64,000 nt of DNA from Alphaproteobacteria bacterium (GCA_017629245.1 JAGBXO010000002.1:86475-150474); one strand, 5' to 3'. Numbered from the stretch's first letter, positions 42,383-44,465 are shown. The notes: generated by a model from the sequence alone, not told the origin. A program made the numbers and translations.

Positions 42383-42410
42383 TTGCTTTTTATGTGTGTG
42401 ACGTTATAAT
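42383..42410 (+). promoter_or_regulatory. promoter of the tRNA-Thr/aspS unit
   Basis: TTGCTT-16bp-TATAAT. Confidence 0.55.
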
Positions 42411-42425: not shown

Positions 42426-42499
42426 GCCCTAATAGTCTAGTGGTAAAACACGTCCTTGGTAAGGACGAGTCGCAAGTCCGATTCTTGCTTAGGGCACCA
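42426..42499 (+). tRNA. tRNA-Thr (GGT)
   Basis: GCCCTAA/TTAGGGC-ACCA acceptor, CGTCC-TTGGTAA-GGACG anticodon arm. Confidence 0.9.
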
Positions 42500-42508
42500 G
42501 ATTTTATG

Positions 42509-42641
42509 AGGCTGAACTAATCGTGTTGATGTGATTGACGACCACGGAATGATTTGTCAGTTTTGGCTAAGTTATAAATCAGGGTGGCACCGCGCAGCCA
42601 TTTTGACTTGCGCCCCTGAAATTTAACAAATGTGTGGGTGC
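42509..42641 (+). promoter_or_regulatory. T-box-like riboswitch (Asp) in the aspS leader
   Basis: TCAGGG-TGGCACC-GCGCA...TGCGC-CCCTGA perfect antiterminator with 7-nt bulge; GAC codons in an upstream short stem. Confidence 0.75.
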
Positions 42642-42695
42642 CGAAATTCCAAAAAAATCTTTTCGTTGCCCCGCAAAAACAAAAAAGGGACCGAA

Positions 42696-44465
42696 ATGTT
42701 ATCTTTGAAATCAAAGTTCAGAACACATACATGTGGTGAATTGAATACAAAAAATGTTGGTGAAACAGTTGTTTTGTCAGGTTGGGTGCATCGTAAACGC
42801 GACCATGGGTCGTTGCTGTTTATTGATTTGCGCGATAATTATGGTTTAACACAGATTGTTTTTGATGGTGGGGATGAAAATCTGGAAAAAATTCGCCCGG
42901 AATCTGTGATTCAGGTGACAGGAACTGTTGTTGCGCGTGATGCTGCGGCGGTTAATGATAAAATCCCAACAGGGGGTATTGAAATTCAGGCCACTGCATA
43001 CGAAGTGCTGACAAATTGTGAAGTTTTGCCGTTCCAGGTATTTGGTGATGATGATTCTGTGGCCGAAGATTTGCGTTTGAAATATCGCTATATTGATTTG
43101 CGTCGTGAATCACTGCATAACAATATTTTAATGCGCAACCGTATTATTAAATTTATGCGTGATAAAATGTGGGAGATGGGATTTTCGGAATTTCAAACAC
43201 CGGTTCTGACCGCGTCCAGTCCAGAAGGTGCACGTGACTTTATCGTCCCCAGTCGCAATCATCATGGTATGTTCTATGCGTTGCCACAGGCACCACAACA
43301 GTTTAAACAGTTGTTGCAGGTCGCGGGGTTTGACCGCTATTTCCAGGTGGCACCATGTTTTCGTGACGAAGATTTGCGTGCGGACAGATTGTTAGAATTT
43401 TATCAATTAGATATGGAAATGTCGTTTGTTGATTTGCCAGATATTCAGGCCGTTGGTAATGAATTAATGCCGGCAATGATACGCGAATTTGTGCCAAATG
43501 CAATTGTCGCAGATGATATTCCACATATTCCATTTGATGAAGCAATGCTGAAATATGGGTCTGATAAGCCAGATTTGCGCAATCCAATCATTATTCATGA
43601 TGTGACGGAAATATTCCGTGGGTCTGAATTTGGAATCTTTGCAAATGCAGTTGAAAATGGCAGTGTTGTTCGTGCAATTCCTGCACCAAATTCATCGGAC
43701 AAGCCGCGTTCTTGGTTTGATAAACTGGGTGATTATGCAGTCAAAGAACTGGGACTGGGCGGATTGGCGTATGTCGTTTTCGGGGAAGAGGCCAAGGGTC
43801 CCGTTGCAAAGAAGTTAGATGATGCGCGTATTGCAAAACTGCGTGAAATTGCAGGTGATAATTCGTCGTTATTCTTTGTTTGTGACGCGGCGGATGCAGC
43901 TGCGCGCGCGGCGGGTAAGTTGCGTACAAAATTGGGTGAAGATTTAGGTTTGATTAATCCAAATGAATTCCGTTTGTGTTGGATCGAATCTTTCCCGTTC
44001 TTTGAAGCGGATGAAGAATCGCCAACAGGGATTGCGTTTACACATAATCCGTTCTCGTTCCCGATGGCAACATTGGAAGAATTAAGTACTAAAAATCCAT
44101 TGGAAATCAAGGCAGCACAATTTGATATGGTATTAAATGGTGCGGAAATATGCAGTGGTGGTTTGCGCAACTATAACCCTGATATTATGGTAAAGTGCTT
44201 TGAAATTACCGGCTATGACGAAGAAATTGTAAAAGAAAAGTTCGGCGGTATGTACACTGCGTTCAAATATGGTGCGCCACCACACGGTGGTTGTGCGTTT
44301 GGTATTGACCGTTTGGTACAAATTATGTTGGGCGAAGAAAATCTGCGTGGTGTTGTGGCGTTTCCAACAAATCAGCGCGGACAAGACCTGATGTTGGGGG
44401 CACCAACAAATGTGACCGAGCAACAATTGCGCGAAGTTCATATTCAGGTCAGAAAAAAGAACTAA
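42696..44465 (+). CDS. aspS: aspartate--tRNA ligase
   Basis: RTHTCGEL, RDHG, PEGARDF, YALPQAPQQFKQLL, CFRDED.RADR, GAPPHGG. Confidence 0.97.
   Translation: MLSLKSKFRTHTCGELNTKNVGETVVLSGWVHRKRDHGSLLFIDLRDNYGLTQIVFDGGDENLEKIRPESVIQVTGTVVARDAAAVNDKIPTGGIEIQATAYEVLTNCEVLPFQVFGDDDSVAEDLRLKYRYIDLRRESLHNNILMRNRIIKFMRDKMWEMGFSEFQTPVLTASSPEGARDFIVPSRNHHGMFYALPQAPQQFKQLLQVAGFDRYFQVAPCFRDEDLRADRLLEFYQLDMEMSFVDLPDIQAVGNELMPAMIREFVPNAIVADDIPHIPFDEAMLKYGSDKPDLRNPIIIHDVTEIFRGSEFGIFANAVENGSVVRAIPAPNSSDKPRSWFDKLGDYAVKELGLGGLAYVVFGEEAKGPVAKKLDDARIAKLREIAGDNSSLFFVCDAADAAARAAGKLRTKLGEDLGLINPNEFRLCWIESFPFFEADEESPTGIAFTHNPFSFPMATLEELSTKNPLEIKAAQFDMVLNGAEICSGGLRNYNPDIMVKCFEITGYDEEIVKEKFGGMYTAFKYGAPPHGGCAFGIDRLVQIMLGEENLRGVVAFPTNQRGQDLMLGAPTNVTEQQLREVHIQVRKKN

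Follow-up and report, generated by a model that had tools for sequence, protein, structure and literature searches.

Introduction

T-boxes have been described from Firmicutes, Actinobacteria, Chloroflexi and Deinococcus-Thermus, and the proteobacterial exceptions given in the accessible text of the same papers are deltaproteobacterial leuA leaders of Geobacter and Pelobacter, in 2 of 125 genomes (PMC3766115, PMC2494555). A kink-turn (K-turn), or GA motif, is part of nearly all T-boxes according to the accessible portion of a review (PMC7583486). In the database TBDB, as far as the available text describes it, the class II model was used only on Actinobacteria and on class I matches with a truncated Stem I (PMC7778990). 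An earlier report of a T-box in Alphaproteobacteria or in Enterousia was not found among titles and abstracts; supplements, TBDB and subscription papers were beyond reach and may list such elements. Here, we describe the leader of aspS, the gene of aspartyl-tRNA synthetase (AspRS), in a stretch of 64,000 nucleotides (nt) from Alphaproteobacteria bacterium (GCA_017629245.1 JAGBXO010000002.1:86475-150474; 'the window'). A preliminary description of this DNA had proposed that a minimal T-box-like riboswitch controls the gene. We conclude from comparative sequence analysis, with a probability of roughly 0.85, that positions 42508–42619 are a strongly reduced, functional T-box of about 110 nt that senses uncharged tRNA-Asp or tRNA-Asn and controls aspS.

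The host had been taken for an alphaproteobacterium, which is borne out: it is a Candidatus Enterousia of the order Rs-D84. In public data, the nearest contigs coding for this AspRS bear the labels Candidatus Enterousia, Alphaproteobacteria bacterium or Rickettsiales metagenome-assembled genomes (MAGs; animal guts), and NCBI taxonomy places Enterousia under Alphaproteobacteria. Enterousia belongs to GTDB order Rs-D84, the genomes described are smaller than 1 Mb and lack amino-acid biosynthesis, and genome reduction in the lineage is ongoing, according to the accessible text of PMC12306168. The host assembly comprises 934,506 bases in 11 contigs, is 98% complete and has 42% G+C.

Results

Structure and covariation of the leader

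All features discussed lie on the plus strand of the window. The discriminator (antiterminator or antisequestrator, 42579–42619) was delimited by sequence, Rfam and covariation. It consists of helix A1 (42579–84 with 42614–19), the bulge UGGCACC and helix A2 (42592–97 with 42608–13). The positions given to its parts in the preliminary description are exact (TCAGGG 42579–84, TGGCACC 42585–91, GCGCA 42592–96, TGCGC 42609–13 and CCCTGA 42614–19), and so is the distance of 77 nt from 42619 to the aspS ATG at 42696. The 14-nt T-box sequence AGGGUGGCACCGCG at 42581–94 (reading AGGGTGGCACCGCG) agrees at 14 of 14 positions with the consensus AGGGUGGNACCGCG, as quoted in the available text of PMC11297988.

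Upstream of the discriminator, folding and covariation define a short Stem I (42508–42564), which is made up of an AU/GU-rich outer helix (42508–18 with 42556–64, from the fold), a C-stem (42519–24 with 42549–54), a K-turn, a four-pair NC helix (42530–33 with 42543–46; one U·G and three Watson-Crick pairs) and an apical loop. By its pattern, the bulged strand of the K-turn (42525–42529) contains a GUU bulge at 42525–27 followed by GA at 42528–29, opposite GA at 42547–48. On either strand, the GA shows no variation among the 57 leaders, and the flanking stems covary; GUU bulge and GA/GA match the known T-box GA motif and are assigned as a putative K-turn at the base of Stem I. An L7Ae-family K-turn protein (PF01248) was not found in the host genome. 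The apical specifier loop AUUGACGAC has 9 nt (42534–42542) and was defined by the loop alignment of the 57 leaders. Between Stem I and the discriminator, the alignment shows a single-stranded linker of about 14 nt (42565–42578) that carries a conserved AAGUUAUAAA; conservation reaches 90% or more in the alignment columns A72, A73 and G74. The linker AAG at 42569–71 may be a candidate RAG purine motif, by analogy with the T-box of Mycobacterium tuberculosis ileS, where RAG purines contact A76 and the antisequestrator (accessible text of PMC11297988). A pairing of the linker AGU with ACU of the loop was considered and dropped, as no covariation was seen by eye.

Covariation was assessed in an alignment of 57 distinct leaders (alignment A1, not to be confused with helix A1) over 22 pairs in four helices. 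In these helices, 93.2% of the cells are paired, compared to 37.6–53.8% when the partners were slid by 1–3 columns. Changes on both sides were observed for 14 of the 22 pairs: 6 of 6 in the C-stem, 3 of 4 in the NC stem, 3 of 6 in A1 (93.6% of cells paired) and 2 of 6 in A2 (95.0% paired). The remaining A1 and A2 pairs are invariant across the aligned leaders, as is the bulge UGGCACC. The covariation score is 0.479 compared to 0.202 in shuffles, and 0 of 500 shuffles attained 0.479. Covariation in relatives had been named beforehand as a check on the element, and all four helices are supported by it. A pairing of CGTG (42522–25) with CACG (42543–46), which had been drawn into the upstream stem, fails this comparison: it is paired in 66.7% of cells, below the shuffle mean of 71.5%. 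The supported partner of CACG 42543–46 is UGUG 42530–33, above the K-turn. As a side observation, RNAfold puts an alternative hairpin, UCAGGGUGGC/GCCAUUUUGA (42579–42608), ahead of the antiterminator-type fold; the T-box 5′ strand and the A2 loop make up this hairpin. GCC...GAC in the A2 loop is conserved in one subclade.

The specifier triplet and the host tRNAs

Two GAC triplets, at 42537 and 42540, had been pointed out as possible specifiers and the choice between them left uncertain. The alignment favours the first. Loop positions 4–6 read GAC in 48 of the 57 leaders and AAC in the other 9, whereas positions 7–9 (42540–42 in the window) vary between AAC, GAC, ACC, GCC, AAA and AAU. Because the former triplet is always GAC or AAC and the latter varies, we place the specifier at 42537–39 and not at 42540–42. 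In the window, this GAC is followed by the purine G at 42540, and the codon matches the gene aspS. All 57 leaders have a purine (A or G) at loop position 7, and 53 of the 57 have a U immediately 5′ of the codon. Possibly, U-GAC-R forms a five-base contact with A37-C36-U35-G34-U33 of the tRNA.

Both the tRNA-Asp(GUC), encoded at C9:57288-57364, and the tRNA-Asn(GUU) of the host end in G73-CCA, therefore UGGC of the bulge fits either of them. The match to G73 of tRNA-Asp, argued previously from general knowledge of this tRNA, is thereby confirmed in the host's own tRNA gene, and it holds equally for tRNA-Asn. The host genome, which is 98% complete, gave no asnS match over the cut-off for that gene, and it encodes GatB. 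Taken together, AspRS must therefore also make Asp-tRNA-Asn, and the host enzyme is probably non-discriminating. Since AspRS must also serve tRNA-Asn, the alternation of GAC and AAC is biologically sensible, which argues that the triplet is read.

Distribution of the element

With the Rfam T-box model RF00230, a check that the preliminary description had suggested, the window gives a local match only (42577–42617, model positions 183–216; E 0.031 in 501 nt and 0.014 in the whole genome). It covers the antiterminator and, at 19.5 bits compared to a gathering threshold of 93, is weak alone. The only other RF00230 match in the host genome (14.5 bits, C9:111941-111993) falls within an acetate-kinase-like open reading frame (ORF) and was rejected as chance.

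Conservation in relatives is more informative. The T-box core GGTGGCACC is present upstream of aspS at 25 of 25 same-genus loci. Of the loci from other families of the order, 3 of the 4 that could be assessed have it; L029 is without it, and L030 was left out for want of upstream DNA. The 18 assessable Enterousia-like public contigs all have it, L040 being left out for the same reason. Absence of the motif before aspS in relatives had been named beforehand as a refutation. Among more distant AspRS loci it was found at 5 of 61, namely in two 'Rickettsiales' gut MAGs and three Clostridia-labelled contigs. Rabbit-gut contigs labelled uncultured Clostridia (L098, L106 and L111) encode an AspRS that is 49–50% identical to that of the window. 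Because it is conserved in relatives and its four helices covary, the element is more than a chance match.

A covariance model, R1, was built from the 57 distinct leaders of alignment A1. In the host genome, R1 gives a single match of 105.1 bits with a runner-up at 17.1 bits, and no second copy was found there. In the order sample, each of the 81 genomes from the genus, many of them outside the training set of R1, gave a single strong match, and 6 of 6 genomes of the sister genera g12, g13 and g14 matched too, all at 65–118 bits. Other Rs-D84 lineages gave 29–40 bits (the long-type relatives described below) or nothing. An R1 match of 23 bits in G243, from the class scan, is without the T-box motif and was discarded as noise.

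RF00230 matches 88 of 121 Rs-D84 genomes at E <= 0.05 and reaches 93 bits in none of them. The top score in the order, 90.4 bits, goes to a near-canonical T-box (bulge UGGU) that precedes an archaeal-type tyrS; such tyrS T-boxes, carried by other Rs-D84 families, are L113 (G032:C19:3851-4083), L118 (G033:C85) and L119 (G029:C14), with tyrosyl-tRNA synthetase identified by NF006330 at 391 bits. Across Alphaproteobacteria, 2 of 151 genomes match RF00230 at E <= 0.001 (one Enterousia, and G240). The global Rfam alignment of L117, a leader from the genus, scores 39.5 bits and was rejected as an invalid architecture, since promoter DNA is forced onto Stem I. Further T-boxes in leaders of other aminoacyl-tRNA synthetase genes, for which a scan had been proposed, did not turn up in the host genome: searches with GGTGGNACC and TGGNACC[GA]CG gave no further site with a matching 3′ strand. 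A looser scan of the same genome for a helix, TGGNNCC bulge, hairpin and helix gave 13 matches compared to 3–12 in shuffles, which is not significant.

Missing parts and long-type relatives

Several known T-box parts are absent from the window. The part of Stem I above the K-turn consists of no more than 4 pairs and the 9-nt loop, and the distal Stem I platform (AG bulge, distal loop and double T-loop) is missing. Stem II with its S-turn and the IIA/B pseudoknot with the F-box are also missing, about 14 unpaired nt separating Stem I from A1, and there is no Stem III hairpin between Stem I and A1. Alignment and covariation thus agree with the earlier remark that the window has neither an elbow clamp nor Stem II; sister genera do keep Stem II.

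These sister leaders were collected in alignment A2, which holds nine long-type leaders (L114, L115, L116, L123, L143, L053, L057, L032 and L127). Their sources are further genera of the same family, other Rs-D84 families, two MAGs labelled 'Rickettsiales' and, from the class scan, G240 as a member of another alphaproteobacterial family. All nine share the short K-turn hairpin of the window, and its terminal loop, here 5–7 nt long, contains GAC or AAC. A covarying Stem II with S-turn-like GAAGAAC/UAGAAC is present, and in 8 of the 9 it is followed by a CGGG/CCCG (IIA) hairpin, a CCGUUA-like F-box and the UGGCACC discriminator. A Stem III-like hairpin is frequent. L127 (G036:C2:2068-2248), with GAC in a 5-nt terminal loop, keeps Stem II without the IIA hairpin and F-box and precedes an archaeal-type non-discriminating AspRS (NF003483, 452 bits). 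Its Shine-Dalgarno (SD) sequence GGUGUUA complements the bulge with two wobbles. L143 (G240:C51:5417-5581) is a long-type aspS T-box with 55.9 bits and AAC in its loop, from a genome of 1.1 Mb. The host of L143 belongs to a different alphaproteobacterial family, therefore the element is not confined to the order Rs-D84.

Compared to the window, the long-type aspS T-boxes have the same gene, the same short K-turn hairpin with a GAC/AAC loop and the same UGGCACC bulge. They differ in Stem II, in IIA and F-box, in a loop of 5–7 instead of 9 nt and in Rfam scores of 36–56 instead of 19.5 bits. Because these sister leaders carry the missing elements, the aligned sequences indicate that the absence of Stem II and the other parts from the window is a loss and not an alignment artefact.

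The region between the discriminator and aspS

Downstream of the discriminator lies a hairpin, H2 (42636–42671). Of 58 minimal leaders, 54 form it on folding, and it was further characterized by bulge complementarity and duplex energies. Its 5′ strand GGGUGCCGAAA (42636–46) is near-invariant and contains GGUGCCG (42637–43), the complement of the whole bulge. Its 3′ strand UUUCGUUGCCC (42661–71) drifts, with pairing kept mostly by wobble. This asymmetry suggests that the 5′ strand has a second partner. GGUGCC(R) complements UGGCACC of the bulge exactly, with GCC(A) as a copy of the tRNA 3′ end. A downstream bulge complement, GGUGCC(R) or GGUGUCA, occurs in 55 of the 58 leaders compared to 114 of 11600 shuffled tails (1%).

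In sister genera without H2 (g12: L149 and L150; g14: L135 and L141), GGUGCCA or GGUGUCA is located 9–11 nt before the AUG and is the SD. For these four leaders, pairing of the bulge with the SD gives a state 3.2–5.4 kcal/mol more stable than the A1/A2 state, as is expected if tRNA is needed for expression to be ON. Over 61 leaders, 1.9 of 10 SD positions are paired when the A1/A2 state is enforced compared to 4.9 of 10 in the bulge-paired state. In the window, a region conserved in the alignments (42684–42698) comprises an A-rich tract, the SD-like AAAGGGACCG (GGGACC 42687–92) and the aspS ATG (42696–98). From its sequence, the real SD of this genus, AAAGGGACC (42684–92), looks like a diverged copy of the GGUGCC(R) element, and the H2 3′ strand is able to cover it in part. 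A clear SD sequestrator was not seen in folding of the leaders of this genus. A candidate relay via 42637–43 and H2 is present, but the competition is clear-cut solely in the sister genera without H2. A palindromic insert, CCCACUUCGCAAA.GCUUUGUGGGAC, is found between H2 and the SD in L015, L021 and L128 (two copies in L128) and looks like a small dispersed repeat.

No terminator-like site was found on the plus strand of the window from 42579 to the aspS ATG, and among the 58 leaders only 5 show weak sites of this kind, their positions being inconsistent. The 'canonical antiterminator' of the preliminary description holds for the form of the helix; with no terminator in the window, the helix more likely acts as an antisequestrator than in transcription antitermination, and class I antitermination is unlikely.

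Genomic context

The aspS gene (42696–44465) encodes a bacterial-type aspartyl-tRNA synthetase of 589 amino acids (NCBIfam NF001750, 744 bits), and its ATG at 42696 is fixed by the conserved N-terminus MLSLKSK.RTHTCGEL. An alternative in-frame ATG at 42630 would give an ORF of 611 amino acids and falls in the leader, across hairpin H2. The start is likely at 42696 rather than 42630, because the stretch 42630–42695 has indels among relatives that are not multiples of three.

Directly 5′ of the leader lies a gene for tRNA-Thr (anticodon GGU, 42426–42499; Rfam tRNA 63 bits, ARAGORN), which is probably co-transcribed with the leader in the window species; the leader begins 9 nt past its end. Ahead of the tRNA gene there is a perfect -10 TATAAT (42405–10) with TTGCTT 16 nt upstream (42383–42410), which a consensus promoter scan did not list. 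Most relatives have a -10-like TATAAT in place of tRNA-Thr and no tRNA gene upstream, and a like promoter directly abuts Stem I in most of them. A tRNA gene between promoter and leader seems to occur only in some species. Assembled contigs from two RNA-library runs of related strains span from the Stem I loop over the T-box to the start of a relative's aspS; such contigs give no starts, strand or level, may include DNA carry-over, and gaps in their cover carry no meaning.

Discussion

The exact T-box sequence, the covarying helices and the match of codon and discriminator to the gene and its tRNAs sustain the proposal of a T-box leader of aspS. The core T-box features are found and the accessory ones are missing, so that the aligned sequences place the element as a reduced variant of the T-box class which belongs to no described subclass. 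The 'new compact T-box class' put forward earlier is retained in this narrower sense: a short Stem I without clamp is already known from Actinobacteria, and the novelty is therefore confined to the joint loss of Stem II, pseudoknot and Stem III and to the host phylum.

In the proposed mechanism, the tRNA anticodon GUC would pair with GAC 42537–39 in the apical loop of the K-turn hairpin, and the free G73-C-C-A end would pair with UGGC of the bulge (42585–88). Pairing of the tRNA 3′ end is predicted to stabilise helices A1 and A2. A charged tRNA would be unable to dock, a competing leader fold would form and less AspRS would be made. Species with AAC in the loop would sense tRNA-Asn instead; such a specifier suits an AspRS whose substrates must include tRNA-Asn as well. 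Binding of tRNA by the leader is here inferred from these sequence matches. For the output, the modelled states allow, at odds just short of even, a translational route in which the SD, or in this genus a relay copy in H2, mimics the tRNA 3′ end through GGUGCC(R) and pairs with the bulge. When uncharged tRNA is lacking, GGUGCC(R) of the SD or of H2 would occupy the T-box bulge. In the window, pairing of the bulge with the H2 5′ strand would free the H2 3′ strand, which could then cover the real SD. Uncharged tRNA would displace the SD mimic from the bulge. Somewhat more tentatively, the leader may be the smallest natural T-box, in which the K-turn loop alone decodes, possibly by the five-base contact, and SD mimicry (g12 and g14) or relay mimicry (this genus) would provide the expression platform.

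Several observations weigh against a functional T-box or against this output. The window element scores far under the Rfam threshold (19.5 compared to 93 bits), and the leaders come from kin genomes, so that the counts are not independent and overstate the support. Enforcing A1/A2 leaves the mean SD accessibility unchanged (0.52 compared to 0.53), and thus no switch is modelled. In the window, A1/A2 together with H2 has -28.8 kcal/mol compared to -24.4 kcal/mol for the bulge-paired state, a gap of 4.4, which would make the ON fold the ground state. In two leaders (L017 and L033), H2 is missing and the complement to the bulge is poor (5 of 7). Both the bulge and its complement are near-invariant, which makes covariation uninformative on their pairing, and GGUG is also plainly Shine-Dalgarno-like. 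According to the accessible text of PMC7583486 and PMC11297988, T-boxes with a short Stem I rely on Stem II and the pseudoknot to bind tRNA; removing the pseudoknot costs about 1200-fold and a shortened Stem II abolishes binding. Because published short Stem I T-boxes depend on these parts, a leader without Stem II or elbow contact might, by analogy, bind tRNA too weakly.

The alternative closest to our interpretation is the same T-box with another output, namely classical sequestration of the SD by the 3′ strand (42608–19), Rho loading on unpaired C-rich segments, or RNase cleavage in A/U-rich linkers. Folding gives no clear SD switch in this genus, and the H2 5′ strand also pairs with the GCGCCC 3′ strand (mean -10.9 compared to -6.9 kcal/mol in shuffled tails). 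In one long-type relative (L028/L115), a plain classical sequestrator can be read from the sequence, with CCUUAUA paired to UAUGUAAGG across the SD. In the window, however, the 3′ strand offers the SD only CCC(U):(A)GGG, i.e. 3–4 pairs, and RNAduplex found no consistent partner before the start across leaders, in a comparison where the start was set too far downstream in many rows including that of the window; only rows with a correct start, e.g. L135 and L141, were used from it. Another output would also leave the 7-nt bulge complement in 55 of 58 leaders unexplained, likewise its coincidence with the SD in two genera. We consider a different output credible at odds clearly below even. A classical class I T-box acting by transcription antitermination is very improbable. 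The helix has the form of a canonical antiterminator, and the near-canonical tyrS T-box of 90.4 bits occurs in other Rs-D84 genomes; in L119 (G029), a hairpin and U-run overlap the 3′ strand, which points to transcriptional control of that tyrS T-box. The aspS leader, on the other hand, has no plus-strand terminator-like site between 42579 and the ATG, the weak sites in 5 of 58 leaders are inconsistent, and the tract after H2 is A-rich and not U-rich. According to the literature available to us, transcriptional T-boxes in general need a long Stem I, which the aspS leader lacks.

It is improbable, if less so than class I control, that the leader is a decayed T-box relic which no longer senses tRNA and serves as a structured 5′ leader, e.g. 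for mRNA stability or processing after tRNA-Thr. Elements published as necessary for tRNA binding by a short Stem I are lost (accessible text of PMC7583486 and PMC11297988), the lineage is in genome reduction (accessible text of PMC12306168), and the predicted ground state is the ON fold. Yet the putative tRNA-contacting parts are the most conserved ones (GAC/AAC followed by a purine in 57 of 57 leaders, the invariant UGGCACC and the linker AAG), compensatory changes maintain the helices and one copy is retained in 81 of 81 genomes of the genus. The sole codon change seen, GAC to AAC, remains within the two tRNAs that AspRS should serve. The lack of an upstream tRNA gene in most relatives also speaks against a relic.

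A reduced T-box that senses tRNA-Asp or tRNA-Asn would widen the range of T-boxes by a conserved lineage in gut Alphaproteobacteria with reduced genomes. No Rs-D84 genome reaches the Rfam threshold, therefore standard annotation misses these T-boxes. The rule that an elbow clamp, or Stem II and the pseudoknot, is needed would be directly tested by a natural leader that has neither and is selected in more than 80 species. With 110 nt, the leader would offer a minimal scaffold for structural study and for the engineering of tRNA sensors. The full and reduced versions in sister genera would form a stepwise natural series of riboswitch paring during genome reduction, and the alternation of GAC and AAC would tie the switch to the indirect Asn-tRNA pathway.

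Among known systems, the translational class II ileS T-boxes of Actinobacteria (M. tuberculosis and Nocardia farcinica), as described in the accessible literature, share with the window a short Stem I without the double T-loop platform, a K-turn at the Stem I base and the same discriminator core. They have no terminator, and control is exerted at the ribosome binding site; the window shares the absence of a terminator. In contrast to the window with its linker of about 14 nt, the ileS T-boxes keep Stem II with the S-turn, the IIA/B pseudoknot (F-box) and Stem III. Their sequestrator is described in the available text of PMC11297988 only as occluding the ribosome binding site. It reportedly uses the antisequestrator 3′ strand, as Sherwood is said to have described in 2015, whereas the best complement of the downstream element in the window is the bulge. 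Host and gene also differ, with Alphaproteobacteria and aspS in place of Actinobacteria and ileS. The glyQS T-boxes of Bacilli resemble the window in another respect: according to the accessible text of PMC7583486 and PMC11297988, they are naturally without Stem II and the IIA/B pseudoknot and have a flexible linker after the Stem I K-turn. They have, however, a long elbow-clamping Stem I, Stem III and an intrinsic terminator, none of which is found in the window. The aspS leader combines the losses of the ileS type with those of the glycine type and adds to them the loss of Stem III.

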